A stretch of 14,073 bases of DNA from positions 1-14,073 of the forward strand of contig DXJL01000140.1 of NCBI GenBank assembly GCA_019057635.1, given 5' to 3'. The notes beneath the pieces were generated by a model. The model did no database searches. It worked only from the letters and a program-made list of their open reading frames with translations, and had not been told where the DNA came from. Positions 1 through 14,073 of this stretch are shown one piece after another (position 1 is the stretch's first letter; every line of letters starts with the position of its first letter). The stretch comes from Candidatus Heimdallarchaeota archaeon (GTDB taxonomy: Archaea > Asgardarchaeota > Heimdallarchaeia > Hodarchaeales > Hodarchaeaceae). Position numbers and translations under genes: made by a program.

Positions 1-1
1 A

Positions 2-199
2 AAAATCTACATTCAATTGTTCATTGGATTCATGCTTCTTTTGACACTAATACTTCTTGTTATTTCCCTATTTTTGGGACAAAACTCAGCTTCTCCTCCT
101 CCAAATTCTGATTCCGAGTTTCCTATAATTTATATTGCTCTCATGGTGTTGGCTGGACTCGCAATATTGCTTGGAGCGGTTATTCGTATGTGGAGATGA
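2..199 (+). CDS. 3' end of a membrane protein, probably truncated by the window edge
   Basis: The frame is open from position 2 (KIYIQL) into the listed TTG ORF. It has two hydrophobic segments joined by a Pro/Ser linker and ends at TGA 197-199. Confidence 0.6.
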   Translation, partial: KIYIQLFIGFMLLLTLILLVISLFLGQNSASPPPNSDSEFPIIYIALMVLAGLAILLGAVIRMWR

Positions 200-324
200 A
201 TAATTGGATCGGAATGGAGAATTGGAGCTTATCTCATGAGTAGCTCTTTACCCATTGCTTCGTAGTAAGTTACGAAAGATATTAGAAAAAAGGTTGGAAA
301 AAAGGATCTAATTTTTGATTTGTA

Positions 325-1011
325 TTAAATCCATCCTAGAATACCAACAAATAGAATGATAGCGATAATATTAACAGCGTAAATCACTATCAATGTGATA
401 ATTTGATTTTTCCGCTCTTTCATATCATATACCCAAAAAGATACAACCATAAAATGAAGATAACCAAATATTATGATAGGAATTACTCCTAGCAGACTAG
501 CTTTCCAGAAATCGTAAACCCAAAGTAAAGCGCCTGCATCATTAAGAATTACTTCTACAAATACACAGAAGATTGAGTTTCCGACTGCTAATGCCCAGCG
601 ATTAGGAATCTTTAGCGGAATCTTAAGTGGAGTGAGATCAAATTTGAAATTCTTGTCTTCAGGGAGCATTTTTGTGAATCCAATACCAGCCATCGCAAAC
701 ATCATACTGATCTCTATATTTAAACCTACAAATATGAGAAAGCCTGTTTCTCCACTACACGTCCAGAATGCCTGATAATCAGTGAAATACAATACTAGGG
801 CATTCCAGATTTCATTAAACCAATCCATACCCCAAAAAGCAAGTCCTGCAAATACTCTGTTCCAATTTTTTTTCTCAATCTCTACTGCATACATGTAGAT
901 AACGATCGCAAATAAAGGAATGATGAACCATTTGAAATCCTCGGGCCATACGCGTAAAATCGCTAGTGCGGCTTCTGAATCAGGTGTAGGAGTCATTTGT
1001 TGTTTCACCAT
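325..1011 (-). CDS. Conserved hypothetical multi-pass membrane protein
   Basis: 228 aa with about 6 hydrophobic helices and polar intramembrane motifs (GMDWFNEIWN, GLNIEI, FVEVILN). A TATA-like box lies upstream. Confidence 0.85.
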   Translation of the reverse strand: MVKQQMTPTPDSEAALAILRVWPEDFKWFIIPLFAIVIYMYAVEIEKKNWNRVFAGLAFWGMDWFNEIWNALVLYFTDYQAFWTCSGETGFLIFVGLNIEISMMFAMAGIGFTKMLPEDKNFKFDLTPLKIPLKIPNRWALAVGNSIFCVFVEVILNDAGALLWVYDFWKASLLGVIPIIIFGYLHFMVVSFWVYDMKERKNQIITLIVIYAVNIIAIILFVGILGWI

Positions 1012-1049
1012 CTATATGAAATTATTTGGAATGATTTAGTTAGTATTCG

Positions 1050-1060
1050 TATAAATCTTT
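1050..1060 (-). promoter_or_regulatory. Putative archaeal BRE/TATA box for the 325..1011 gene
   Basis: The minus strand reads AAAGA-TTTATA (1060-1050), about 40 nt upstream of the ATG at 1011. Confidence 0.45.
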
Positions 1061-1178
1061 GGTAAAAAGGTCTTATTTCCGAAGGTATCATAGAATCATT
1101 TTCCTTTCCGTGAAAAGTAAGATTATTAGATAAAGAGGGAAATAGTGGATAATGATAGAGGCGAGTTAAGAGAGGAAA

Positions 1179-2066
1179 ATGGCCACCCCAAAAATTAGCT
1201 TTGATGAAGCAATAATACGATTAGATTCCAAAGATTACCCTGATGAAACAGTAATTGACATAGAATTTGAGTGTCAAGCTACTGAAAGTTGTTCCGAAGA
1301 AGTCACCTATGGCGTTGCACCATATCGTCAGATTGCAGTCACAGATAACCAACAATCTGCAACAAGAATGTTATTAGTCTGGGTAAATCCAGCGAATCAC
1401 CACAATGTCAATGCAGTTATCAAATTTAGTAAAGGGGATAAATTATTAATCAAGAACCCCATTGTTCCAAAAGAAGGGAGTTATGCAAGAGATCAATGGG
1501 GAAATCGTGTATTTTGGGTTGGTAATCCACTAGGAGAATCGAATCAACCAAATACCGAGCTAATCCTTCTTGCAAGTGTCAAAGAGACATGTTCTGTATG
1601 TAGACACCTAATTAAGGAGGAAGAAGACCGAATTTATTGTCCTACCTGTCATAATCCTTTCCACCTTCCTCACTTTGCTGAATCATTGAAAGTTACGGGA
1701 AAATGCCCAATATGCGCTGCTAAAAGTTCTTTAAGCGAAATCATAGATAATAATGTCACAGAATCTTTTGATTTTTCAAAAATTCTTACTCTAAAAAAAT
1801 TTCCATTCATCAGAAGAACCTCACAATTTTATCTAAAAGATAATCCAGAATCAGGGAATTACGGTGTATTCCTGCTCCAAGATCAAGAGGAATCAAACCA
1901 AGGAACTTATTTGGAAAATATCTGTGAATATATTAATACTCGCACAGGCGCTCAAGCAGAGACCGCTACCAGAGTTGGTCAAACTTTTATAATAATTCCT
2001 TATCAAGATACGATCACATTAGATATTTTGGAAAAATTACTCCTTCAACTCGAACAATCGGAGTAA
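1179..2066 (+). CDS. RING-type zinc-finger protein with a putative N-terminal OB-fold and an unknown C-terminal domain
   Basis: aa 138-179 read C-x2-C-x12-C-x2-C-x4-H-x2-H-x10-CPIC. The N-terminal stretch RQIAVTD...MLLVW...FSKGDKLLIKNP resembles RPA/SSB OB-fold strands. GAGG lies just before the ATG. Confidence 0.8.
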   Translation: MATPKISFDEAIIRLDSKDYPDETVIDIEFECQATESCSEEVTYGVAPYRQIAVTDNQQSATRMLLVWVNPANHHNVNAVIKFSKGDKLLIKNPIVPKEGSYARDQWGNRVFWVGNPLGESNQPNTELILLASVKETCSVCRHLIKEEEDRIYCPTCHNPFHLPHFAESLKVTGKCPICAAKSSLSEIIDNNVTESFDFSKILTLKKFPFIRRTSQFYLKDNPESGNYGVFLLQDQEESNQGTYLENICEYINTRTGAQAETATRVGQTFIIIPYQDTITLDILEKLLLQLEQSE

Positions 2067-2203
2067 TCAGGGAAATAATGGAATAAAATTGGAAATAATT
2101 AATCTACCGTTAATTCTCTCTATTATCTTATTGGATAATCAGTTTTCATCTACACCTGAATTTTTTAACTTCTTAATAATATTACGGAGAACTGAGATTG
2201 ATC

Positions 2204-3400
2204 ATGGATAGCACTCAAACAACGAAGAAAAAGCCTTTCTATCTGGTCACAACCGATATCGGAATGGGATTCTCTGTTTTTCTTTTTGTAATCGGTCACA
2301 CGAGTCTGTGGTGGGATAATACTTTGGATTCTCAATGGCCCAATCTTCCACTTCCGGCATGGTTACTTTTAATTGTAGCTTTTCTAGTTCCACCAGGTTT
2401 TCTATTCTGGTACACCTTTAATACCGCAAACTCTCTTTTAAGAAGAAAAAGTGATACCGAGCGCTTGGGTAGTCGTCACAGACTTCTGAAGAGGACTATA
2501 ATCTTTTTGTTTATTGCAGAATTTGGAGAAGTGGCGACAGCAATATTTCTTGGAGAACCTGTGCTTAATTATCTATTAACCTGGGAATTATTTCATATGT
2601 TTTCCCTTTCAACAATTTTTATTTTAAGTATCTTTGAATTGGCATGGTTAACTGAAAGAAAGGGCTTTGGAAATTATAAACAAGCGGCTATGGTAGGTTT
2701 ATTATCTACTATGGCCATAGTGATAGGAATCTATCTTATTTTCCATGATTATACCCAGAGTAGATTCATGACTCATACTGTTGAACTCACTTTCCAATCA
2801 ATATTTGAAAGGATTCTTTTAGATTATGGCCAGGCTCCAATCGTCCCCTATCTTGCATTCTCAGCAGTAGGGGGATTATTGGCGGTATATCTTGATTTAC
2901 CTAATGAAGACAAGAGCAAAATTCCTCAAAAAGCCATACCTGTTTTCATTTTAGGAGCTATTTCGTTTATAATAGGAATATTATTACTGAGTGTTGAAAC
3001 GTATACATCTCCACCAGTTCAAGCACCTATTTCCTCAAATTTAGTATTTATTTCAATCGGATTCCACCTTATCTCTGTTACAGGTGGAGTGATACTATTA
3101 GATTTAGATACACTCTATGGAATACCTAAAATCAATAAAAAAATTCTTCCATTGGTTCTAATAAGTAAAATTACCTTAACAGTCTACCTATTACACAATC
3201 TAGCTTATGGCATTCCTTCTGAATCTGATTTAGTGCAAACTTTGATTCCAACTGTGGAGATATCAATGTTCGTAGGGTTATTGTATGTTTTATTATGGGT
3301 TCTAATTGCCTTTATTTGGCAAAAATCGAGATTTAAATTCAGTGTGGAATGGATCATTGTAAATTTGCAGAGAAAAAGCTGGCGTTGGTGGATAAAATAA
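2204..3400 (+). CDS. Multi-pass membrane protein, DUF1624 (HGSNAT-like acyltransferase)/DUF418-like
   Basis: About 10 TM helices. Motifs DIGMGFSVFLFVIGH (cf. DxxRG...H), LLKR, WELFH, PIVPYLAF, SKITLTVYLLH and SVEW. ATG 2204 is preferred; TTG 2198 is the alternative start. Confidence 0.7.
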   Translation: MDSTQTTKKKPFYLVTTDIGMGFSVFLFVIGHTSLWWDNTLDSQWPNLPLPAWLLLIVAFLVPPGFLFWYTFNTANSLLRRKSDTERLGSRHRLLKRTIIFLFIAEFGEVATAIFLGEPVLNYLLTWELFHMFSLSTIFILSIFELAWLTERKGFGNYKQAAMVGLLSTMAIVIGIYLIFHDYTQSRFMTHTVELTFQSIFERILLDYGQAPIVPYLAFSAVGGLLAVYLDLPNEDKSKIPQKAIPVFILGAISFIIGILLLSVETYTSPPVQAPISSNLVFISIGFHLISVTGGVILLDLDTLYGIPKINKKILPLVLISKITLTVYLLHNLAYGIPSESDLVQTLIPTVEISMFVGLLYVLLWVLIAFIWQKSRFKFSVEWIIVNLQRKSWRWWIK

Positions 3401-3523
3401 CCTTTTGGGGTAACTAAGATATTTTAACAAAGAATCTGGTTGACACTCTAAGTATATTTTCCCTTCACGATCTCGTACACGTAAACTTAAGTGAGTACTA
3501 GTCCGGTTTGGGCGTCTAACCAT
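3302..3523 (-). CDS. Small hypothetical protein (73 aa) or gene remnant
   Basis: The ATG is preceded by GGTGA (3534-3530) with a 6-nt spacer, an archaeal-type Shine-Dalgarno. However, the 3' end overlaps the convergent gene by 99 nt. Confidence 0.3.
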   Translation of the reverse strand: MVRRPNRTSTHLSLRVRDREGKIYLECQPDSLLKYLSYPKRLFYPPTPAFSLQIYNDPFHTEFKSRFLPNKGN

Positions 3524-3572
3524 AATTTTTCACCCAAAGAAGAGATTTTTATGATGTTGCAGGTGATGTGAA

Positions 3573-3728
3573 CTATAATGAATCAGCATCCAAAAACTCA
3601 TCAGCTAGCTCCTCTACCCCTAACACTTTAAATGAAGATTTTACTGTCTTCTTCACATGAGAGATTCCAAAATTAATGATATACTTAAACAAAGAATCGC
3701 TTTCGATTATTCCTTCATCAATTGACAT
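3573..3728 (-). CDS. Small acidic hypothetical protein (51 aa, not in the ORF track)
   Basis: Hand translation gives MSIDEGIIESDSLFKYIINFGISHVKKTVKSSFKVLGVEELADEFLDADSL* (ATG 3728, TAG 3575-3573). It fills an otherwise empty gap and has AT-rich upstream sequence. Confidence 0.45.
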   Translation of the reverse strand: MSIDEGIIESDSLFKYIINFGISHVKKTVKSSFKVLGVEELADEFLDADSL

Positions 3729-3852
3729 AATTCATATATTATATTATTATGGCCTTATTTGAAATGGTCTGAAACAATCTTCAGCAATTAACACCAGGTG
3801 GAGTATAGCCGAAAGGATACATAATAGGCTTGATTCAATCTTTCATAATGTT

Positions 3853-4932
3853 TTAAAGAGAATTAAGTAATTTTTCTACTTGGTACTTAGATTGTACAGA
3901 AGCTTCTCTCCAGCAGGAAACAATCTCAAGTATGTTATTGACTTCTGATTGAAAGGCATTTTCATCGATTTCTTTTAAACCAGTGGAAATCAAAGTAATC
4001 AACCCGAAAAGGTTTACAAACCTGGAAAATTTATCTGAATTATACCACAAGACATCTTGAAACCGGTTTAGATTTAAAAAATCGTGAATTTCAGGATCTG
4101 CAAGTAAAGAGCGAAGGAGCGTAGTTGCATTTGTTGACATATTACCTTGATACTTATCTTGATGTCTAACTAAGATTTTAATCAGATTGACACTCATATC
4201 AATCTCTTCATCCGAATTAGTAGACATTGGGGATAGTTGATCCCTTAGCATATGTCCGAGATGCCATTCATCAATACGAGCTCGATTTTTAATTAGATAA
4301 TCCATTTCCTCTTTATTGCTTCCTAGATCCTTTAGTAGGATCCATGCGTAAGCAATTGCAAAATCATCAATAGTTTTGGGGATTAGATTACCCATTTCGG
4401 CGGGAAACTTTGTCTTTTCCGTATATATTCTATTTAAGCTTTTCAAACACTTCAAAGTGTTACCATAAGAGGTGTGACTTAGTTGATTTTTCTCTGAAAC
4501 ACTTAGCGTGTCATTAGTATACGTAGCGACCTGGAAATAGAACTCTACATAGCCATCACGGGTATCAGTAATGATTTCAGAGAGATGACTTGGGTCTGAA
4601 ATCATGATTGCCTCGTTCAATTTAGAAATCAAAGCAGCATTATATATTGAGCGGAAGCTATCCAATAAAGGTTCATAAATAAGTTTTACTCGCGCTTCTT
4701 CAATGTTAGGAACTCCTCGTCCTCCAAGAAAATCATTCAAATGAGAATATTGTCGCCATTCGTTGTCAATGACTTCTCGAAAGTTTACAAGAGCCATTGA
4801 TTGATAACCTTTTAAGATAACATAAAACCCATTCTCAAATATCTCCACTGACCGTCTGATATACTCGAGATTTGTGAATTGATCTTTGAATATCCAAAAT
4901 TGATCTGGCTGATTTGACAGCAATAATCCCAC
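3853..4932 (-). CDS. C-terminal portion of the GH13 gene (helical domain of unknown function)
   Basis: 359-codon ORF in frame with the catalytic portion. The GTG start is probably just an internal Val codon. Confidence 0.7.
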   Translation of the reverse strand: MGLLLSNQPDQFWIFKDQFTNLEYIRRSVEIFENGFYVILKGYQSMALVNFREVIDNEWRQYSHLNDFLGGRGVPNIEEARVKLIYEPLLDSFRSIYNAALISKLNEAIMISDPSHLSEIITDTRDGYVEFYFQVATYTNDTLSVSEKNQLSHTSYGNTLKCLKSLNRIYTEKTKFPAEMGNLIPKTIDDFAIAYAWILLKDLGSNKEEMDYLIKNRARIDEWHLGHMLRDQLSPMSTNSDEEIDMSVNLIKILVRHQDKYQGNMSTNATTLLRSLLADPEIHDFLNLNRFQDVLWYNSDKFSRFVNLFGLITLISTGLKEIDENAFQSEVNNILEIVSCWREASVQSKYQVEKLLNSL

Positions 4933-5040
4933 TCCCAGTGTTTGTTGATGAAGATTGTCTGTACTCTTATCTAGCTTGGCAGAAGATGTTTTAATACATC
5001 CCGCTGTTCCACTGAATTTGTTATTATATAAAATAAGTGA

Positions 5041-7272
5041 TCATTTAGTTTCTGTTCCATTTGAATAACAGAATACATTTTCATCTACATATCCATCAGT
5101 TGTGTACAAATCATAAAGATAAAAATTATCTATATTCGAGAATAAATAACGGTTTTTGACTAATGGAAAAATGACTCTTTCATGATGCTGGAGTAATCCC
5201 TGATCGACTTCTTCCTCCCAATAAGCTTGTCGATACTCCATTCCGTATTTTTCTGCAAAACCTTCAATCATTCCATGTCCAAACATTGGTAGACCGGGTA
5301 AAGTGACTAAAAGGAGGCAAATACCAAAGTATTTCTCGCCTTTGCCAAATTGTTTAGCAGCGGTTTCTTCATCAGGGTTGTTCATAAAGTTAACAAACCG
5401 TTTTAGGATTTGTGGGTCAAATTCAAGAGTATTCTTAATAACGGAACGATATTTTGCATTATCCTCATCACGAAGCATATTCATGAAGGCTGAATTGTAG
5501 ACACGATGCATACCTAGTGTCCTTACAAAGAATCCCTCTAAGAGCCAGAAAGCTTCTGCTAATAACAAAGTATCAGGCATTTCTTGATTGATACGATCCA
5601 CCACTTCCCGCCAAAATTCTTGAGGAATGGCCTTATGAAATTCTTCTTGTGTTATCCCCATGCCTGCTCTTGAGGGAATATCACCTCCACTACCTGGGGG
5701 TGGGAACCATAAACGCTGAAAATGTTTCTTGGTTAATGTCATTGCCGCGTCGAATCGTATAATTGGGAATTTTTTAGCAACATGCAAAATAGTCTCAATA
5801 ACTGCCTCGCGTACCACTGGTAAAAGGTAATTTAACTGCGCGGTGTCGTTCCATGGCATACTTGTTCCATCATTTCCGTGATAAATGTACTTCGTTTCAT
5901 TCGTGCGGAAATCAACTCTTTTGAATGTAACTGCGGCATCTGATCGAGAAAAGTAGTGATCTTCCAGATAAATACCTAAATTTGAGTCACTTGATAAATT
6001 ATCCCCAGAGTATGAGTAGGAAGGAAATGGAGGATAGTCCAAGGAAACATACCAGTCAGGATGTTCTCTAATCCATTTGGAGTCAATTCCTGTATGATTT
6101 GGAACCATATCTGAAGCTAAACGTATTCCTTTACTTTGTGCACGTTCTTTTAGAATATCAAATGCTCTTTCTCCCCCTAAATCATCTGCTATAACATAAT
6201 CAAATAAACTATATGCAGATGCTTCTGCATCAGGATTACCGCACCAATGTTTTACAGTTTTCGATGCAGGACTTCTTTCCCAAAGGCCGATTAACCAGAG
6301 AGCGTTAAATCCCCATGTAGCTAGTTGATCTAGTTCCTCGATCGGTATTTGATCCAGATGACGGATTTCTCGATTATGTTTTTTAGATAATTGGTCTAAC
6401 CAGACGTAAGTAGTTTTAGCTAACATTACTACGTTAGGCATCCAGTCTTTATCAGGTGTATATCTTTCTTCTAGGCCTTCTCCGTAATCTATTGCTTGGG
6501 CTTCTCCAGGTCCTAGTCCTCGCATCTTTTCTTCTTCAGCAAAAAGGTCAAGGGCATATAATAATCGATAATAAGTGGTTGGATCAAGGAAGGTCCCCCA
6601 TTCTTTAGTCATATATTCCAATTGATTTTTTATGGAATAAGGGTGTTCGGAAACAGGCCTTTGAAGTAATTGGATTAGGGGTAAGTTTTCGGGACCAAAC
6701 GGTTCCTGATTAGCAAAATAACTGTCAATATTCTCTACAACTTCGAGATAGCTGGTATTTTTTTCAAGATTTACATCGTCAAAAAATTCTAAATGCTTTG
6801 AGAAAGATGGATTAGAATTATTTAACCAAACATGCACCATCTCTTCCAAAACAATTTCTCGATTGTTTTTTCCTTCGGTTGACCCCTCAAGATACGTCGC
6901 AGCATCAACTTCTCCTGAATATACATCTGGAGGAGGAAATTCTTCAATGAACGATTTCATGCCCATTTCGAGAGTATTTTCATCAATGCTACTTTTTAAT
7001 TCTGTGAATAAATTTGTATAAAGATCAGGTTCTTTCTCTTCCTCAAATTGTTTAAACAATTTGTGAGAGATTTCATTTATTAACCCTATACCATTAATTT
7101 CTGATGCGCGTACCGCAAGTTCTGGGAAATTAACTAAATCTTTTTTTCCATTAATTGAATCTACAAATAATCTAACTAAGTAAATTTCTGGAAAGGTAAT
7201 ATACCCTTCCTGAGTATTGAAGAATTCATTTGTAAAATTATACTTATTACGCGCTTTCAAAGAGATTCTCAT
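5041..7272 (-). CDS. GH13 alpha-amylase-family catalytic portion
   Basis: Conserved regions are intact: LASDMVPNH (I), IRFDAAMTL (II, Asp nucleophile), LLAEAFW (III, Glu acid/base), FMNNPDE (IV) and TLPGLPMF. Confidence 0.92.
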   Translation of the reverse strand: MRISLKARNKYNFTNEFFNTQEGYITFPEIYLVRLFVDSINGKKDLVNFPELAVRASEINGIGLINEISHKLFKQFEEEKEPDLYTNLFTELKSSIDENTLEMGMKSFIEEFPPPDVYSGEVDAATYLEGSTEGKNNREIVLEEMVHVWLNNSNPSFSKHLEFFDDVNLEKNTSYLEVVENIDSYFANQEPFGPENLPLIQLLQRPVSEHPYSIKNQLEYMTKEWGTFLDPTTYYRLLYALDLFAEEEKMRGLGPGEAQAIDYGEGLEERYTPDKDWMPNVVMLAKTTYVWLDQLSKKHNREIRHLDQIPIEELDQLATWGFNALWLIGLWERSPASKTVKHWCGNPDAEASAYSLFDYVIADDLGGERAFDILKERAQSKGIRLASDMVPNHTGIDSKWIREHPDWYVSLDYPPFPSYSYSGDNLSSDSNLGIYLEDHYFSRSDAAVTFKRVDFRTNETKYIYHGNDGTSMPWNDTAQLNYLLPVVREAVIETILHVAKKFPIIRFDAAMTLTKKHFQRLWFPPPGSGGDIPSRAGMGITQEEFHKAIPQEFWREVVDRINQEMPDTLLLAEAFWLLEGFFVRTLGMHRVYNSAFMNMLRDEDNAKYRSVIKNTLEFDPQILKRFVNFMNNPDEETAAKQFGKGEKYFGICLLLVTLPGLPMFGHGMIEGFAEKYGMEYRQAYWEEEVDQGLLQHHERVIFPLVKNRYLFSNIDNFYLYDLYTTDGYVDENVFCYSNGTETK

Positions 7273-7425
7273 CTAAAAAAGACACTTCCTCGTCAGAATG
7301 GTCAGTGGGAATACAGCTGATTAAAGATGACTAATATTCTAACTAATAAGGATTAGAATTCAGAGATTAAAATTATTATCTTCGGTATGCAAAAAGTGCC
7401 TGATTTTTCTCATTTCTATAGAGAT

Positions 7426-8232
7426 TCATTTCCTTAGTGCTTTGATAACTTGCATAAACTCTTGGACACGATCTTTATCAACGTTTTTCCAAGTATCTCC
7501 GTCAAATTTTAAGCTGGTGCCTACAATAACGCTATCAGCAACTTCTAATTGTTTTGCAATATTATCCTTTCGTGCACCTGTATTTACAATAACTGCCGCT
7601 CCTAATGAATTGTCTTTAACAATTTTCAGTTCCTTTAATTTAGCTTCCATACCAGTCATAGGGCCTGAGACACATAATGCATCAGCAATGCCCACAAAAA
7701 CAGCACCTTTGGCAATAAGTGATAAATTCCTTCTATCCAAGGGATGAGCAAATTCAGCATTGACGATACTGAAAATTTTCACATCACATGCCTCTATGGC
7801 TTTCTTATACCTCAAAGCTTCAGCTCCAGGAGCGCTGAAAAAGCCCATATCCCCAGCAAAAGCTCCGGTGAAAACACCTCTAACGTATTTTGCTTGAGTT
7901 GCTTTGGCAACAGACAAAGCAGATATTGGATCCCACATGATATCAACACCGAATGGTATGTCGATATCTGTTTTTAATTCACCAATAGCTGCTGACATAG
8001 CTGCGACAATTACTGGATCAACACCATTAGCATAAGGACGATCTCCCTCATTACAGAACAAAAGGCCATCTATTCCTCCTTCTTGCAAAGCATAGATGTC
8101 CTGTCGTGCACTAGATATAATATTCTCCATCCCTTCTTCATCATCGTATTCAGGGGTATGAGGAAGAGGTGGAAAATGAACCATTCCTATTACAGGTTTC
8201 GTAATGTTAAAAATTTCATCTAAACATTTCAT
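7426..8232 (-). CDS. BtpA/SgcQ family TIM-barrel protein
   Basis: Motifs KPVIGMVHFPPLP, GGIDGLLFCNEGDRPY, PFGVD, ADALCVSGPMTG, NTG and IVGTSLKFDG. The 268-aa length is typical of the family. Confidence 0.92.
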   Translation of the reverse strand: MKCLDEIFNITKPVIGMVHFPPLPHTPEYDDEEGMENIISSARQDIYALQEGGIDGLLFCNEGDRPYANGVDPVIVAAMSAAIGELKTDIDIPFGVDIMWDPISALSVAKATQAKYVRGVFTGAFAGDMGFFSAPGAEALRYKKAIEACDVKIFSIVNAEFAHPLDRRNLSLIAKGAVFVGIADALCVSGPMTGMEAKLKELKIVKDNSLGAAVIVNTGARKDNIAKQLEVADSVIVGTSLKFDGDTWKNVDKDRVQEFMQVIKALRK

Positions 8233-8424
8233 GATTAATCCCAGAGCGTTCCTGATATCAATTATTGCTTTTTATCGTTAATTTGCCAAATATTTTTCTA
8301 CTAATTAGCATTTTTAAGATGAATAATAAATTTTGACTAACAAAGAAATAGGAGAATAATAACTTTTATGGGTAAAATTACATATTCTTATTCAAGATAT
8401 TGTTGTGTTACGAGATGAATTAGA

Positions 8425-8850
8425 ATGGCAGATATTAAATTTCATACGAAGTACATTGCTGTGCAGACAAAACGAGCAGGTGAATACTATGATATCACTG
8501 ATGACATAATAGAATTTGTTAAAACTAGTGAGGTCGAGAAAGGGCTCTTGATGGCTTATAGTCTGCATACCACAACTGGCCTAGTAGTGAATGAAGGATC
8601 TGATCCCGGAGTAGGTAAGGATGTTTCTGAAGTACTCTGGGAATTAATACCTGAATCAAGAAACTGGAATCATAAAGAGGAAAGTCCTTTAGACTCCGCA
8701 GCACATGTAAAAGCACAATTAATGGGTAACTCAATCTTTTTGGGGATAGATGGACATTTTTTAGTACTTGGTACTTGGCAACGAGTTTATTTCGTTGAAT
8801 ATATCGAAGCGAGGGACAGAAAAGTATTTTTGATCTTGTTTGGGGAATAA
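8425..8850 (+). CDS. yjbQ: YjbQ/UPF0047 family protein (secondary thiamine-phosphate synthase activity described for the family)
   Basis: Motifs DIT, HTTTGLVVNE, AAHVKA and LGTWQRVYFVE; 141 aa. Confidence 0.92.
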   Translation: MADIKFHTKYIAVQTKRAGEYYDITDDIIEFVKTSEVEKGLLMAYSLHTTTGLVVNEGSDPGVGKDVSEVLWELIPESRNWNHKEESPLDSAAHVKAQLMGNSIFLGIDGHFLVLGTWQRVYFVEYIEARDRKVFLILFGE

Positions 8851-8994
8851 TTCAAGATAAAGTAAGTTCTAGGTTGAGTCTGGTGGTAAAAATTGTTCAG
8901 ATACCTCCAACATATTATTCTAATAATCAATTACTGAATTTTAATAAGAATCCCTTCGATTAAGTAGGATTAAGTCAAATTTACACAGATTGAA

Positions 8995-9299
8995 TTAAAT
9001 AGCAAGTTGTCCAAATTGATTAGCCCATATTCCGTGTGTTTGCACCAAATCACGTGATTTTAAGACCGCAAGAACATTTTTGGCTTCTTCATCACCGATA
9101 TCCACGTCAGAAAGTGGTAAAACAGTCTCTCTAGTCCGTTTTCCCCCAATTATAGCTGGTTTTTCCAAATAAATCCTTACCCAATTGTCAAAGAATTATC
9201 TTTCAAACCACATAGAAAAGGTTTAGTAATTATGGTAACACAAAAACTGTTTTCTTTGTTCACCCTCTGAAAGTCCAATCTGGAGAATATTTTGTCCAT
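8995..9299 (-). pseudogene. Frameshifted small gene with an OB-fold-like C-terminus
   Basis: The frame from ATG 9299 (MDKIFS...SLTIG*) stops at 9177. An overlapping -1 frame is open from 9195 to 8995 and reads FFDNWVRIYLEKPAIIGGKRTRETVLPLSDVDIGDEEAKNVLAVLKSRDLVQTHGIWANQFGQLAI*. Confidence 0.45.
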
Positions 9300-9358
9300 C
9301 CCTACAGGAAAGAATTTTATCTCAATATTTCTTTTGTGTGCATCGAAAAATAGCGAAA

Positions 9359-10396
9359 TCAAGTGAGTTCTGATTCCAAATATTGTTTTGCATCATATTC
9401 ATGTAAAGCATTGAATCCTCGTGTTACGATATCTGTGAGATAGCAAACTTGATCTGCTTGTTCAAGTAAACTCGATAATAATCGCGCAAGGAACCAAGTG
9501 GACTCATCTGCAGCTTCTTCAGAAATAATTACTAACAATGGTTGTACCTGGTACTTTTTCTTTTTTACTTCTTTGACTGTGATAGCAGCTTTTTCTGTGT
9601 CTTTATTCAAGAAAGCCTCAATTGCAGTATCAAGTAATTCAATGTGTTTTTCAGCAATTTCCTTTACCATAGATTCAGTTTCTGTAGTTAAAAATGATTT
9701 TTGAAATTTTCCAATCCGTTCCGCTAGCTCTTTGCAGGAACGTCCTAGTACTTCTCCTTGATAAGCGACTATCTGGTAGTTTAAACCCTCAAACGGATAT
9801 AAACTTTCATTAATTTCTTCTAGTGGATCCTCAAACGATTTTTGTAGCAATCGAACAATGAAATAATAAACTCGGTCTATTTCAGAATATCTTTTAATGA
9901 TTTTTTCCCGTTTCTCACCATCTCCAGAAAAAATTGCGCTAATCGCATCATCTAACATACTGAAAGATAAAGCGTAGATTTTTCTTACCAAAGTTTGCAA
10001 ATCTAGTACTGAAGTAGCAATAAATTGAATTTCTAATTGATTTGGGGATTCACGAATTATTTCCAAACCAATCTGATGTCTTATTTCCTCTCGTATTTTA
10101 TCCGGATCCTTAATTTTTTTTCCTTCGCTGGGATATATTACCATTGTATCAAAGCCTGTGATATATCGCGAAAGAAGTTCCAACTCAATGCTTTCGGATT
10201 CTGGAATTGTTGTGGTCTTTCTAGGAGTCAAGCGGGGATTTCGGGGATATAGAAGTAAGTACGTTTCATTTTCGATACGGATACCTATTTCATCCTTTGC
10301 TTCCAGTCCATTTCGCTCAATCCACTCTCTTGGGAGACTAACTAGATAAGTTCTAGCTCCTGTCAGTTGTAAACTACGTGTAATATCTTTTGGCAT
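9359..10396 (-). CDS. Archaeal phosphate-uptake regulator-like protein (N-terminal AbrB/SpoVT domain plus PhoU-like helical repeats)
   Basis: N-terminal RSLQLTGARTYLVSLPREWIERNGLEAKDEI, then LLSRYITGFD, IGLEII and EIDRVYYFIVRLL. ATG 10396 is preferred over 10450 and 10408 because the family motif begins right after it. Confidence 0.88.
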   Translation of the reverse strand: MPKDITRSLQLTGARTYLVSLPREWIERNGLEAKDEIGIRIENETYLLLYPRNPRLTPRKTTTIPESESIELELLSRYITGFDTMVIYPSEGKKIKDPDKIREEIRHQIGLEIIRESPNQLEIQFIATSVLDLQTLVRKIYALSFSMLDDAISAIFSGDGEKREKIIKRYSEIDRVYYFIVRLLQKSFEDPLEEINESLYPFEGLNYQIVAYQGEVLGRSCKELAERIGKFQKSFLTTETESMVKEIAEKHIELLDTAIEAFLNKDTEKAAITVKEVKKKKYQVQPLLVIISEEAADESTWFLARLLSSLLEQADQVCYLTDIVTRGFNALHEYDAKQYLESELT

Positions 10397-10511
10397 TAAA
10401 TAAGTCATCTCATATTCAATGAATGCTGGGAATCCTATTAAAGGAAACATTTAGCGGCAATTTTTGAGTAGCAAATGCAATTTACTCGTAATCCCGAAAA
10501 GGGTCTATATA

Positions 10512-11252
10512 CTAATTTAGTATTTCTCCCAAAGTAATCAACATTTCTCTAAAAATTATTAGAGCAAATACAAGTAAAATAAGTGCTGTCCCCCTAGTAA
10601 TGATAGAAAAGAATTGTGGATGCGGAAATTTACCAATCATAGTCAACGTGGTACTAAAAGCAATCACCCAGAAAAATACTCCCGATATGAACATTATCAC
10701 AACGACAAGCCTTGAAAATAAGTCTGGTAAACTAAAATCGCTAAATAGAATTATAGTTCCAGCTGAGGTCCACCATAGATATGACCAAGGCGAGGTTACA
10801 ACGATTGAAAGTCCAGTGAAATACTTCTTAAGTAATAGAGTCGATTTGACTTGTTTCAAAGTCTCCCCAGATTGTAAGTTTGAACTAAAAGAATTAGGAT
10901 AATCTATTGGTGCTTTAAGCAGAGTAATAAGCCCCAAATAGCTTAAAATTATCAAATTTATTGCAAATAATAAAAACTTAATCCAATGATTACTAAAAAA
11001 CGTTTCTAGCACTTCTCCACCGATAGATAAAGCTGAAAGTGCGATAATAAAATCTCCAGTCATCGCACCGACCCCTAGAAAGAATGCTGAAAACCATGCA
11101 GCTTTACGCGTTAACGAAGTGTTAAGACCATTTTTTATCAGTTCTAAATTAATCGGGCCTAACGGAGCAGCTAAAGTTACCCCTAAAAACGCAATAATTA
11201 TCCAAATACCAAGGATTTCACTAATATTCACTTCTTTCGGTTCCTTTCTCAT
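10512..11252 (-). CDS. LysE/RhtB family translocator
   Basis: Motifs AAPLGPINLELIKNGL, GVGAMTGD, YLG and GLSIVVTSPWSYLWW; about 6 TM helices. Confidence 0.88.
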   Translation of the reverse strand: MRKEPKEVNISEILGIWIIIAFLGVTLAAPLGPINLELIKNGLNTSLTRKAAWFSAFFLGVGAMTGDFIIALSALSIGGEVLETFFSNHWIKFLLFAINLIILSYLGLITLLKAPIDYPNSFSSNLQSGETLKQVKSTLLLKKYFTGLSIVVTSPWSYLWWTSAGTIILFSDFSLPDLFSRLVVVIMFISGVFFWVIAFSTTLTMIGKFPHPQFFSIITRGTALILLVFALIIFREMLITLGEILN

Positions 11253-11376
11253 TCTATTTTTGTTTCTGAAACCTTCACCTAATCAAAGGAGAGAATGATA
11301 TAAAAATGGGTAATTTACGAAAATTAATATATTCTTCTCATCAGTCAAATAATGTTGAGAAATTCATTCTACGAGG

Positions 11377-12057
11377 ATGCTCCTGATGGATTTGACTTAT
11401 GATATTATTGCATTAGGTATTTTTGTCATATGCATACTTATTTATAGTATTATGATCATCTATGGACTTCGACACCCTACTACTTCAAGAAAAGGGTCAT
11501 TAAATCTTATTTATGAGTACTACGTGGATGAAAGAGTAAAAGAATCTCCTTTAATAGCTGTACAAGCAATACGAAATATAATCATGGCAAATACAGCTTT
11601 TATTTCTTCATTATTAGTTCTACTTGGATTGTTGCTCGCTTTCTACCAACTAATTTTCTCTGGTGAAATGATCCCAGGCAGTAATATTTCACTTGGATTT
11701 ATTCAGATGGTTGTAATGGTGATAATAATCGTCTTTTGCCTTTTTAATTTTGTTTTAGCCATCCGAATGCTAGTCCGATTTACTCTTTTAATTTCGGCCA
11801 ATCCAGAAAAAATTGAATTTTGTGGAATGACTGGTCTTCAGTTCACAAAAGACACAATGATAAGTGCCCAGAATCATTGGTCCTTTGGCCTTCGTGGACT
11901 ATTTTACTTGCTAACAGTTTTAGCTTGGCTAGCTCATCCGATTCTATTCCTTATCGGAGCTATTGGTGTCACAATATACTTGATTTTCTTTGAGGATATT
12001 TATGATTCCCATCTCACAGAAAAAACATGTGAAGATGAGAATTTACAGGCTGAATAA
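11377..12057 (+). CDS. DUF599 family membrane protein
   Basis: Motifs AVQAIRNIIMANTAFISS, FNFVLAIR and WSFGLRGLFY...WL..P. The start may instead be ATG 11386, which gives better GAGG spacing. Confidence 0.85.
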   Translation: MLLMDLTYDIIALGIFVICILIYSIMIIYGLRHPTTSRKGSLNLIYEYYVDERVKESPLIAVQAIRNIIMANTAFISSLLVLLGLLLAFYQLIFSGEMIPGSNISLGFIQMVVMVIIIVFCLFNFVLAIRMLVRFTLLISANPEKIEFCGMTGLQFTKDTMISAQNHWSFGLRGLFYLLTVLAWLAHPILFLIGAIGVTIYLIFFEDIYDSHLTEKTCEDENLQAE

Positions 12058-12092
12058 GTAAATTACGTTGTTTAGAAGAAAAATTATTCCTT

Positions 12093-13049
12093 TTAGGAAG
12101 AAGAGTCAGGTTGTGGCGGGAGAATTGGCTTTCTTCTTCTATTCGTAATTGGTTGAATAATACGACCAATGAAATCTAATCCTCCGAGATAAATCATAGA
12201 TGGGTTCTCGATTAAACGTCTTCTTAAGTACGCAACTGCACATTTCCATTCGATTGTAAATGGAACATATAAGCGAACAGTATACCCTCTTCGTATCAAT
12301 TCATTTTGAATACGCTGCCTGGGGACACCAAGGAGAAATTGGAATTCGGCAACATCTTTCCCTTGTCTTCGCTCTTCTATTTGCTTAAGAGCTGCAACAA
12401 TGCACTTATGGTCATGAGTAGCCACATCAACTTTATGCTGGTTATCTAACAATAACCCTGTATATTCTACTAATTTTTTCTTCATTTCATGCTTTTTGGT
12501 GTATGCAATACTTTTATCCTCATTATAAACACCAATACACATACGTACTCGTGCATTCAAGCCTGTTAAATTTAGTATATCATCTTTAGTCCTGTGCAGT
12601 CGACTTTGTAACACGGTTCCAAACTCATATTTAGGTTTCAAAGTCTTATATAACTCGAGTGTTATATCAGTATAAGTAGAATCTTCCATATCTAAGGTAA
12701 TAATGACTTTTTCTTCTTCTGCACGTTTTAGAATATTCTCCAGATTTTCAAGACATAGGCTCTTATCAATATCTATTCCAAGACTGGTAGGTTTTACAGA
12801 GACATGCTTTGGAAAGGATTCTCCATGTAATTTTTCAATGAGTGATAGGTATATTTGAACAATTTTGTCCACATCCTCCCGATTCGTAACCTCCTCACCA
12901 AGCATGTCAATAGTTGAGGCGATTTTTTGTTCTTCCCAAAGCTCTCGAGCTTTTTTAATTCCACAATCAATGCCTACTCCAGTGACATATGCTCGAGCAA
13001 AGAATTTAACCATAAATGAAGGAAAGAGATTGACTAAGAAGGATTTCAT
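12093..13049 (-). CDS. Monofunctional FAD-dependent proline dehydrogenase (PutB/FadM-type)
   Basis: Motifs DMLGE, SVKPTSLG, LDMEDS, GTVLQS, VATHD, EFQFLLG, RLYVPF and YLRRRLIENP. Confidence 0.92.
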   Translation of the reverse strand: MKSFLVNLFPSFMVKFFARAYVTGVGIDCGIKKARELWEEQKIASTIDMLGEEVTNREDVDKIVQIYLSLIEKLHGESFPKHVSVKPTSLGIDIDKSLCLENLENILKRAEEEKVIITLDMEDSTYTDITLELYKTLKPKYEFGTVLQSRLHRTKDDILNLTGLNARVRMCIGVYNEDKSIAYTKKHEMKKKLVEYTGLLLDNQHKVDVATHDHKCIVAALKQIEERRQGKDVAEFQFLLGVPRQRIQNELIRRGYTVRLYVPFTIEWKCAVAYLRRRLIENPSMIYLGGLDFIGRIIQPITNRRRKPILPPQPDSSS

Positions 13050-13099
13050 AGTGAGTTCATTCCAATTTCTTTTGATTTGGCGTTTAATACATAATCAAT

Positions 13100-13112
13100 A
13101 TTGTCGGACAAT
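13100..13112. promoter_or_regulatory. Palindromic candidate operator upstream of proline dehydrogenase
   Basis: ATTGTC-G-GACAAT is a perfect 6-bp inverted repeat 51-63 nt upstream of the ATG at 13049, next to an AT-rich TATA-like tract. Confidence 0.35.
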
Positions 13113-13243
13113 TATTCAGACTCATTCTCGCTTATCTCTCGCTCTCTCTGAAACCCTTTAAAGAGTTTACCCCATTCAAATCCTAAAGAATGAGGTGATG
13201 AACTAGGTAGAACCAAGTAGCTAGCTCTCATCTCGGAATTCTT

Positions 13244-13936
13244 CTATTTGAGAATTTTATTTCTCCGTATTACTACAATAAGGGTACTAGTTAGGATGAG
13301 CATAAGAATTGAAACACTAAAAGAAGCATTTGAAGTAGTTGAATCAGGAATGCTATTGCTTGTTAGAGTTATGGTTTCTCCTGTATTTAAAGAAACACGG
13401 AGAATATCAACCTGTCTTACCCAGTATTTGCTAATTGTAAGAATACTTTGATTGTTCTCACCAATAAATACTATTCTGAGAGGACCATCGTCATCTGATA
13501 ATGCAGTATCGTTTTCCTCGTATGCTAGTACTGGAATGACTTTTATTGAGAGAGTATTGTTATCTTTATCAAACCCTCTTAGTCCTCCTTCTACTTCATC
13601 ACGAGTGAAGTTTCTACTGTACAAATCAGCAGCTATAACGCTGAGATTATAGTCTAAATCACCTAAAATTGATGATAGAAACAGTGGAATATGAATTCCC
13701 TTCCATATAGATCCAGTAATAATAGTACCAGTTGATTTTTCGTAGCCTCCGTATCCAGTTACCGTTGGTAAAACTTGTTTTATTTCAGCCTCGGTAAGTA
13801 CACCAGTTACATTACCCGTTAAAGTGAGTTGCATGGTTGTAAGTGAAGCTGGAATTATTGATAGATTGCTACTAAATAAAACTAAACCTGTTAGTACAAT
13901 AATAGTCATTGATTTTGATGCTTTGTTGAATTTCAT
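13244..13936 (-). CDS. Secreted, C-terminally membrane-anchored protein with a molybdopterin-oxidoreductase (sulfite oxidase-like) domain
   Basis: N-terminal signal peptide; motifs WKGI, AADLYSRNF, VLAYEEN, GPLRIV and WVRQV; then a Thr/Ser linker, a TM helix and a basic tail (RRNKILK). Confidence 0.75.
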   Translation of the reverse strand: MKFNKASKSMTIIVLTGLVLFSSNLSIIPASLTTMQLTLTGNVTGVLTEAEIKQVLPTVTGYGGYEKSTGTIITGSIWKGIHIPLFLSSILGDLDYNLSVIAADLYSRNFTRDEVEGGLRGFDKDNNTLSIKVIPVLAYEENDTALSDDDGPLRIVFIGENNQSILTISKYWVRQVDILRVSLNTGETITLTSNSIPDSTTSNASFSVSILMLILTSTLIVVIRRNKILK

Positions 13937-13960
13937 GTTTAACTAATACAAATACTGCGT

Positions 13961-13968
13961 TTTATAAA
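13961..13968 (-). promoter_or_regulatory. Putative TATA box of a leaderless or short-leader transcript
   Basis: TTTATAAA lies 25-32 nt upstream of the ATG at 13936. Confidence 0.5.
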
Positions 13969-14073
13969 TTATAATGTATGAATGAATCGTAAGTCCAATT
14001 TTTACGGGTTTTATTCGTATTGTAAAATATGGGATTTATAGAATTCAGCTAAATAGGTTGGAATTTCCTTCTC

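Follow-up and report, generated by a model that had tools for sequence, protein, structure and literature searches.

Results

A gene on the forward strand (positions 1179 to 2066) of a 14,073-nucleotide stretch from Candidatus Heimdallarchaeota archaeon (assembly GCA_019057635.1, contig DXJL01000140.1, positions 1 to 14,073; hereafter the window, meaning the whole stretch of DNA that was analysed) appears to encode a three-domain protein, P0001, in which an OB-fold domain is followed by a RING-like zinc finger and a C-terminal alpha/beta domain. Sequence comparisons indicate that this OB-RING gene is real and conserved in a small Asgard group, that its OB family and its C-terminal domain are apparently new, and that its finger is of a known kind. 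With a probability of about 0.4, we propose that P0001 is a soluble, lineage-specific adaptor resembling RING-type ubiquitin ligases (E3), which would serve the ubiquitin or ubiquitin-like conjugation systems of its host. An earlier note on the same DNA had read the gene as a candidate OB-RING fusion that may couple the recognition of single-stranded DNA (ssDNA) or RNA to ubiquitin-like modification, and this coupling is plausible, there being specific evidence both ways.

The gene and its distribution

The reading frame is uninterrupted over 295 codons and a stop, and gives a protein of 295 amino acids (aa), which can be divided as follows.

1179..2066, forward strand: whole gene, protein P0001; full-length homologues share its start Met, and the ratio of nonsynonymous to synonymous substitution rates (dN/dS) is 0.185 against the homologous locus L015
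1179..1577, forward strand: predicted N-terminal OB-fold domain, aa 1-133, placed by an AlphaFold2 model and structure searches
1578..1730, forward strand: RING-like binuclear zinc finger, aa 134-184, with its ligand codons at 1590-1715, placed by motif, alignment, and profile and structure matches
1731..1808, forward strand: linker, aa 185-210, with conserved E195, F197, D198, K201 and F208 in the alignment columns and a low-confidence model
1809..2063, forward strand: predicted C-terminal alpha/beta domain, aa 211-295, placed by an AlphaFold2 model of the domain alone; no confident relative

The OB part, the finger and the C-terminal domain are all under purifying selection. When codons were compared with those of L015, the closest relative, dN/dS was 0.305 in the OB part, 0.035 in the finger, 0.136 in the linker and 0.141 in the C-terminal domain; against the next loci, L016 and L017, the synonymous sites were saturated. 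The ratio is low across the regions (0.185 overall), so the gene is real and all its parts are constrained. The constraint is strongest on the finger, the best-conserved part of P0001, where mean pairwise identity is 0.78, compared with 0.55 in the C-terminal domain and 0.52 in the OB part. A contig from a metatranscriptome library (X21) spans positions 1502-1855 with 14 differences (about 96% identity); such libraries can contain DNA, so the contig is no evidence of transcription.

A word-indexed search of 5.8 billion proteins (474 candidates) returned 16 proteins at E ≤ 1e-3, the query included. The complete members are 276-299 aa long and 46-76% identical to the query, and the only names in their sources are Promethearchaeota, Hodarchaeota and Hodarchaeales. 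Matches at E ≤ 1e-20 were found in 10 of 400 genomes of the phylum, the host (G000) included, and all ten belong to one family and genus (f1/g1), being the host, 9 of the 21 other genomes of that group and none of the 378 outside it. The full-length protein is present in nine of these ten genomes, including the host, and the remaining one (G065) has only a longer paralogue with the OB part in common. When species-representative genomes were scanned, nine loci were obtained, namely eight full-length copies and one match to the finger only, in a bacterial metagenome-assembled genome (MAG); the MAGs with the eight full-length loci are titled Hodarchaeota (five), Hermodarchaeota, Promethearchaeota and Heimdallarchaeota (one each). 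The distribution of the full-length protein thus appears narrow, limited to one Asgard family. The earlier note had not recognised this three-domain architecture, and it is indeed unrecorded: sequence searches of Pfam, NCBIfam and the PDB left both the OB and the C-terminal domain without a match. Among the papers listed by a literature search, supplementary catalogues of Asgard RINGs not included, none describes an archaeal OB-RING protein.

The RING-like finger

The finger has the pattern C-x2-C-x12-C-x2-C-x4-H-x2-H-x10-C-P-x-C, with C138, C141, C154, C157, H162, H165, C176 and C179 as putative zinc ligands in a RING-compatible spacing. This is the eight-ligand motif ending in CPxC that the earlier note had placed at 1590-1715, and it was recovered there, from the C138 codon at 1590-1592 to the C179 codon at 1713-1715. 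All eight ligands are invariant in an alignment of 16 sequences, and a motif scan found the finger in 17/17 family proteins (P0001-P0017). H158, which adjoins C157, is Gln in other members and hence not a ligand. The surface helix of the finger (HFAExLKVTGK) is nearly invariant.

Several comparisons place the finger among RING and U-box domains. The best Pfam match of the query is Prok-RING_1 (PF14446), which also matches 18 of 23 aligned members at E ≤ 5, with a best E of 1.1e-5, and appears as a precomputed annotation on 11 of the 15 other family proteins from the word-indexed search. In sequence searches of the PDB, Arkadia and RNF165 were matched through their RING-H2 domains, at E 1.1e-3 to 5e-3. 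In structure comparison with VIA-align, the Prp19 U-box aligned with model residues 136-198 at Z 7.9 over 56 residues (2.1 Å). The model of the finger has strands at 151-153 and 160-162 and a helix at 163-173, with a predicted local distance difference test score (pLDDT) of 75-80; it is free of zinc, and a cross-brace in it is putative. The RING assignment of the earlier note held up against a PHD-type finger, given that the RING-H2, Prok-RING_1 and Prp19 U-box matches beat PHD, which reached E 0.045 or worse for the query. Taken together, the model and the matches support a RING/U-box-like finger of the archaeal "small RING finger" kind, with ligase activity as a prediction; its closest known relatives are the archaeal small RING finger protein (srfp) and Prok-RING_1 group.

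In a bacterial MAG titled Deferrimicrobium (L023:2429-2590), a finger was found that is 41% identical to residues 138-190. The finger type is thus not restricted to archaea.

The N-terminal OB domain

The AlphaFold2 model of P0001, built from an alignment of 23 rows, has a mean pLDDT of 81 and a predicted template modelling score of 0.56, and pLDDT is about 90 over residues 1-120. In its N-terminal part, a helix (8-16) is followed by three strands (29-34, 49-55, 62-68), a second helix (71-81) and three more strands (88-92, 112-114, 127-130). In the model, this order is that of an OB fold, in which strands 3 and 4 of a five-stranded barrel are separated by a capping helix. The strand motifs that had first suggested such a fold are located at residues 52-56 (IAVTD), 65-68 (LLVW) and 85-93 (KGDKLLIKN).

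Searches with the model agree with this topology. Foldseek against the PDB gave archaeal RPA first (E 1.8e-4), followed by Pot1, SSB, HIN domains and the N-terminal domain of LysRS, at E up to 1e-3 and with probabilities of 0.99-1.00. In an exhaustive VIA-align search the top match was Teb1 OB-A (Z 10.2, 108 aligned residues, 3.1 Å), and after it came CST, the anticodon-binding domains of AspRS and AsnRS, SSBs, RPA, POT1, MCM and MCM10. Forty-five library chains reached Z ≥ 8, nearly all of them OB folds, and nucleic-acid-binding OB domains make up nearly all of the best 50 rows. The N-terminus therefore models as an OB barrel, as the earlier note had supposed, in a predicted structure. Sequence searches gave no such match: no Pfam OB family was matched at E ≤ 5 by the query, nor is any among the 25 families most often matched by the 23 aligned members; NCBIfam gave no match to the domain; and the rows of a PDB profile search fell almost all on the finger and none on the OB part.

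Seven residues (R63, W68, Y102, D105, G108, F112 and W113) are conserved in this family and in the second OB-bearing family described below. By the positions of the model strands, they map to strand 3, the loop between strands 4 and 5, and strand 5. RPA-type OB folds stack bases on the face formed by strand 3, loop 4-5 and strand 5. An OB fold alone does not give function, and we regard nucleic-acid binding by this domain as possible, with the balance tilted somewhat against it.

Recurrence of the OB domain with a finger

When the OB profile was run against longer proteins, 31 of 7998 scored candidates matched at E ≤ 0.01, and all of them have one of two architectures. Eight are of the soluble type of P0001, all with the finger, and 23 are of a membrane-anchored type, 22 of which have a finger after the OB domain. 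Outside this lineage the OB domain was thus not seen, and 30 of the 31 proteins have a RING-like finger after it. The second architecture defines a sister family.

P0018-P0021, P0043 and P0163-P0180: membrane-anchored sister family, with places at G062:C120:4308-4700, G074:C56:168408-168803, G065:C1:662815-663216 and G067:C63:256-654

The sister proteins, some of them partial, are 287-469 aa long and bear the names Hodarchaeales, Hodarchaeota and Heimdallarchaeota. Their order is one to four transmembrane segments (predicted in 22/23), a zinc ribbon (ahead of the OB domain in four of the five proteins scanned against Pfam), the OB domain, a linker and a RING-like finger with seven Cys, C-x2-C-x11-C-x2-C-x4-C-x13-C-P-x-C. 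An exhaustive single-sequence HMMER search of 1.84 billion representatives found, besides the full-length relative P0017, the OB part in five proteins only, all of the membrane type. Neither a second copy of the OB domain nor a member of the sister family was found in the host assembly. Since the same OB-then-finger order recurs in two otherwise different proteins, the sequences argue that the two domains work together.

Competence of the finger as an E3

The archaeal srfp of Caldiarchaeum provides a reference for the finger. It is reported to be needed for the ubiquitylation of substrates in vitro and to act as an E3; its I30Q mutation abolished activity, and W58A and R69A impaired it (PMC5654768). 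The archaeal ubiquitin systems that this source describes as tested to date use a bare small RING protein. We placed the three srfp residues on the P0001 family by their distances to the ligands (numbered C1 to C8 in order), a mapping of our own, and compared them with 139 related fingers from 130 of 144 other proteins.

srfp I30, two residues after C1 (C1+2): V in 14/17 and I in 3/17 of the family; I in 83/139 and V in 49/139 of the related fingers
srfp W58, on the central helix, seven residues before C7: S in 8, T in 8, A in 1 and W in 0 of 17; W in 82/139 of the related fingers
srfp R69, the linchpin, one residue after C8 (C8+1): A in 14, T in 2, D in 1 and K or R in 0 of 17; K or R in 81/139 of the related fingers

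Pro at C7+1 and Lys at C8+3 are each present in 17/17 family fingers, and this Lys might stand in for the linchpin. Thus the two positions that would contact an E2, C1+2 (Val or Ile) and C7+1 (Pro), are kept throughout (17/17), and two that seem to be required for full activity are lost family-wide. Because the helix Trp and the linchpin are lost in this way, the odds of canonical E3 activity are lowered, and we put them at roughly even; we give about even odds to docking of an E2 by the finger as well. Any transfer of ubiquitin by P0001 is a prediction.

P0001 and srfp, as the latter is described in PMC5654768, have in common a binuclear finger, an additional Cys close to ligands 3 and 4, a hydrophobic residue at C1+2 and a Pro after C7. 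Unlike in srfp, the finger stands between an OB and a C-terminal domain, the gene lies far from ubiquitin genes, the equivalents of W58 and R69 are replaced, and activity is a prediction. The srfp E3 is reported from Asgard ubiquitin operons as well as from Caldiarchaeum subterraneum (PMC5654768).

The linker and the C-terminal domain

Residues 192-210 of the linker have a pLDDT below 50, and its five conserved residues nonetheless occupy invariant or near-invariant columns. They form a motif, E-x-F-D-x-x-K ... F, at 1761-1802 (aa 195-208), inside the part of the linker that the model does not place. This motif may be a short docking motif.

Modelled alone, the C-terminal domain has a pLDDT of 83 and consists of three strands, a long helix, two strands and a helix. 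Its best VIA-align match is the effector kinase OspG (chain residues 30-157; Z 8.6, 72 aligned residues, 2.3 Å), followed by eIF1/SUI1 proteins (Z 5.6-7.0), NleH1 (6.9) and PknB (6.1), and also by aminotransferase and RNA polymerase alpha domains. Because Z values of 7-8 are, by the tool's own note, typical of models without true relatives, none of these matches was treated as kinship. The likeness to OspG covers the arrangement of three strands, a helix and two strands, which may be read as that of a kinase N-lobe. A kinase was nevertheless rejected, given that the domain has only about 85 aa, no Gly-rich loop (GxGxxG) and no C-lobe, that strand 3 (NYG[VI]F.L) is without the Lys and that helix 238-256 is without the invariant Glu. 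Foldseek against the PDB gave no match to the C-terminal domain at E ≤ 1e-3, the ESM Atlas gave no usable match to this part, and one weak PDB profile row covered it at E 0.92. As modelled, the domain appears to be without a convincing relative.

Ubiquitin genes and other fingers of the host

The host assembly, in which the window is contig C114, measures 3.19 Mb and is 91.6% complete. No E1, E2 or ubiquitin family was matched in the 12 open reading frames (ORFs) of the window scanned against Pfam, in line with what the earlier note had said of the window, and such genes occur elsewhere in the genome. There are four UQ_con (E2) matches above the cut-off, two ubiquitin matches and five ThiF/E1 matches, grouped on contigs C20, C150 and C82, so the host does have an E2 and ubiquitin-like system.

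C20: E2-like gene at 19189, E1 at 23348, ubiquitin at 24360 and E2 at 29899
C150: ubiquitin at 5666, E1 at 6603, E2 at 7791, then an ORF of 273 aa
C82:9286-12657 (cluster L008, positions within it): JAB-like ORF 680-1252, reverse strand; E2 1348-1899, reverse strand; zinc-ribbon protein of 262 aa 2215-3003, forward strand; ORF of 109 aa ending in Gly-Gly 3026-3355, forward strand
C82:12733-13509: E1 just downstream of the L008 cluster

By sequence features, the 273-aa ORF after the E2 on C150 was read as JAB/MPN-like, and the C82 cluster as ubiquitin-like, with ORF 680-1252 as its putative JAB-like member.

When the host genome was scanned for the motif in all six frames, five fingers of the P0001 pattern emerged, P0001 among them.

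C189:2209-3183, C82:93984-95285 and C127:14186-16060, reverse strand: fingers at the C-terminus of larger proteins (324, 433 and 624 aa, respectively)
C20:27023-27235, forward strand: RING protein of 70 aa, between the ubiquitin and E1 genes and an E2

The 70-aa protein matches P0001 residues 99-183 at E 1.5e-4 and sits at the srfp position of the ubiquitin operon. The helix Trp is present in three of the four other host fingers. The three C-terminal fingers suggest that RING domains have been diversified by fusion in the host genome.

Discussion

In the working that we propose for P0001 as an E3-like adaptor, the N-terminal OB barrel would be the target-recognition module, most likely for nucleic acid in single-stranded form or for a protein bound to it. 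The RING-like finger would dock one of the four E2-like enzymes of the host, and the C-terminal alpha/beta domain would provide self-association or a second contact.

A number of observations weigh against this proposal. The Prok-RING_1 match of the query is below the cut-off (E 2e-4, 21.7 bits against 29.1) and spans only positions 3-35 of the 54 in the profile, and that of zf-RING_2 (PF13639) is below it as well (E 4.7e-3, 17.6 bits against 27.3). The helix Trp and the linchpin Arg/Lys, each found in 0/17 of the family, are needed by the only archaeal RING E3 tested. On the side of the OB domain, two OB domains from the host genome were compared by hhalign, with a probability of 0.1%, and there is no sequence link to the OB folds of RPA or of aminoacyl-tRNA synthetases (aaRS). 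The OB domain of P0001 has a net charge of -6 and an isoelectric point of 4.8; the latter ranges from 4.8 to 9.3 in the family, and charge is not conserved. Moreover, the sister family is anchored in the membrane, which fits poorly with a role on chromosomal ssDNA, and the other ORFs of the window are absent from the five more distant loci, which also have no flanking gene in common with one another.

Two other explanations of the protein were considered. One holds that it has no role with ubiquitin, the OB domain and the zinc finger forming a composite nucleic-acid-binding unit in which the finger is structural or contacts DNA or RNA as a treble clef. OB and zinc modules are paired in this way in MCM10, in the C-terminal DNA-binding domain of RPA70 and in the MCM N-terminal domain. 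The OB structural matches include MCM10 (Z 8.8 for 3ebe and 8.7 for 7y01), whose internal domain has a zinc module directly after the OB fold, as in P0001, and MCM N-terminal domains (Z 8.1-8.5). The loss of the Trp and linchpin positions in every family finger, the weak similarity between residues 134-159 and the Csl4 zinc ribbon (E 0.0023, far below the cut-off) and a window without ubiquitin genes nearby are also in keeping with such a unit. However, the finger of MCM10 binds one zinc, in contrast to that of P0001 with its eight ligands and RING/U-box-like fold; the closest sequences to the latter are RING-H2 E3s, Prok-RING_1 and other host fingers, one of them in a ubiquitin operon; and both E2-contact residues are retained. 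The near-invariance of the surface helix, in turn, suggests a conserved protein partner. We consider a purely nucleic-acid-binding role unlikely.

The other explanation keeps the E3-like adaptor and changes its target, so that the OB domain would bind a protein, a peptide or another ligand that is not a nucleic acid, and its likeness to RPA and SSB would be one of fold only. The variable charge, acidic in P0001, the transmembrane segments in 22/23 of the only other carriers of the domain and the missing sequence link to any nucleic-acid-binding OB family are all in keeping with it. In addition, OB folds matched at Z 8-10 span many functions, examples being Stn1 and the engineered binder OBody (Z 9.2). 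The conserved aromatic and basic residues R63, W68, Y102, F112 and W113 speak for a nucleic acid instead, since they lie on the side of strand 3, loop 4-5 and strand 5, and the pattern of strands 2-3 resembles that of an OB domain of the same genome, in a short alignment that is not significant. A target of this other kind appears to us decidedly unlikely.

That the finger is a PHD-type reader, which would recognise a peptide tail (modified or not) and not bind an E2, is highly improbable: its C4-H-(H/C)-C2 spacing is PHD-like, PHD profiles match weakly (E 0.045 for the query and 4.1e-4 at best among the 17 of 23 members matched), the PHD fingers of WSTF, Pygopus and KAT6 in the PDB appear at E 0.19-1.1 and NCBI names one homologue 'PHD finger domain-containing protein', yet RING families and RING-H2 structures outscore PHD in every search, PF00628 stays at 14.2 bits against a cut-off of 24, the model has helix 163-173 between ligands 6 and 7 together with the U-box match, and the residue two before C7 is Gly, where PHD fingers typically have Trp.

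With P0001 read as an E3-like adaptor, its parts can be compared with those of known proteins. Like the OB folds of RPA, Teb1, POT1, CST, SSB and class-IIb aaRS, that of P0001 is modelled as a barrel of five strands, the third and fourth of which are joined by a helix (Z 8-10.2 over 90-112 residues, 2.5-3.4 Å). Unlike them, it is acidic and without a Pfam OB match, with identities of only 6-16%, and its binding is a prediction. A small, OB-like barrel that reads DNA and a RING that directs ubiquitylation are also brought together in HLTF/Rad5, and this likeness to the working proposed for P0001 is one of functional analogy, with no homology implied. In HLTF, the HIRAN beta-barrel binds DNA and a RING E3 is part of the same chain (PMC4666394). 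According to that source, HIRAN is six-stranded and not significantly similar to OB folds, and HLTF, unlike P0001, has a SWI/SNF motor as well.

In two further eukaryotic E3s, a RING is linked to a binding domain for single-stranded nucleic acid, as it would be in P0001: Not4, with a RING and an RRM (PMC5970261), and DTX3L, which is reported to ubiquitinate ssDNA and RNA (PMC11460948) and has a further domain directly after its RING. As presented in these sources, their binding domains are of kinds other than OB, namely RRM or KH-like. The Deltex C-terminal domain is not among the best 50 VIA-align rows for the C-terminal domain of P0001. A broader idea would see in P0001 an archaeal precursor of the ubiquitin signalling that takes place on DNA and RNA in eukaryotes; in it, an RPA-like OB domain reads exposed ssDNA or RNA, the RING tags the proteins bound there, or even the end of the nucleic acid, as for DTX3L, with ubiquitin or a ubiquitin-like modifier, and the sister family does likewise at the membrane; we think this very unlikely.

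The reach of ubiquitin in eukaryotes rests on hundreds of E3s, in each of which a RING is fused to a different recognition domain. P0001, its membrane-anchored sister family and the other RING fusions of the host suggest that, in one Asgard lineage, the diversification of RINGs through fusion with other domains was already under way. Should the OB domain bind nucleic acid and the finger be active, P0001 would offer a compact prokaryotic model of ubiquitylation directed by nucleic acid. Should the finger be inactive, a RING would have been recruited for another use, which matters wherever counts of Asgard RINGs stand for counts of E3s.

Genomic context

Next to the gene lie two membrane proteins without family matches, and beyond them sugar-metabolism and housekeeping genes. 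Flanking genes are common only to the three closest relatives, L015-L017. Among the five more distant loci, the only match besides the gene is a short ORF on the reverse strand that overlaps the gene start, and the gene neighbourhood is not conserved. A search with PADLOC gave only a chance-level match to a Cas10 zinc finger (E 0.0078, 13 bits) and no defence-system match of note.

Two further observations were made in the window, both on the reverse strand.

3853-7284, reverse strand: an ORF of 743 aa with an alpha-amylase catalytic domain (5041-7272) and one of 359 aa (3853-4932)
9359-10450, reverse strand: protein of 363 aa with a MazE/AbrB-type DNA-binding domain and a PhoU domain

The first two ORFs correspond to one gene of 1143 aa in L016 and L017, and the protein of the relative aligns in one frame with 73.7% identity. 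A single in-frame TAA at 5041-5043 splits this alpha-amylase gene in the window; it may have arisen by nonsense mutation or through an error of assembly, or may be read through.

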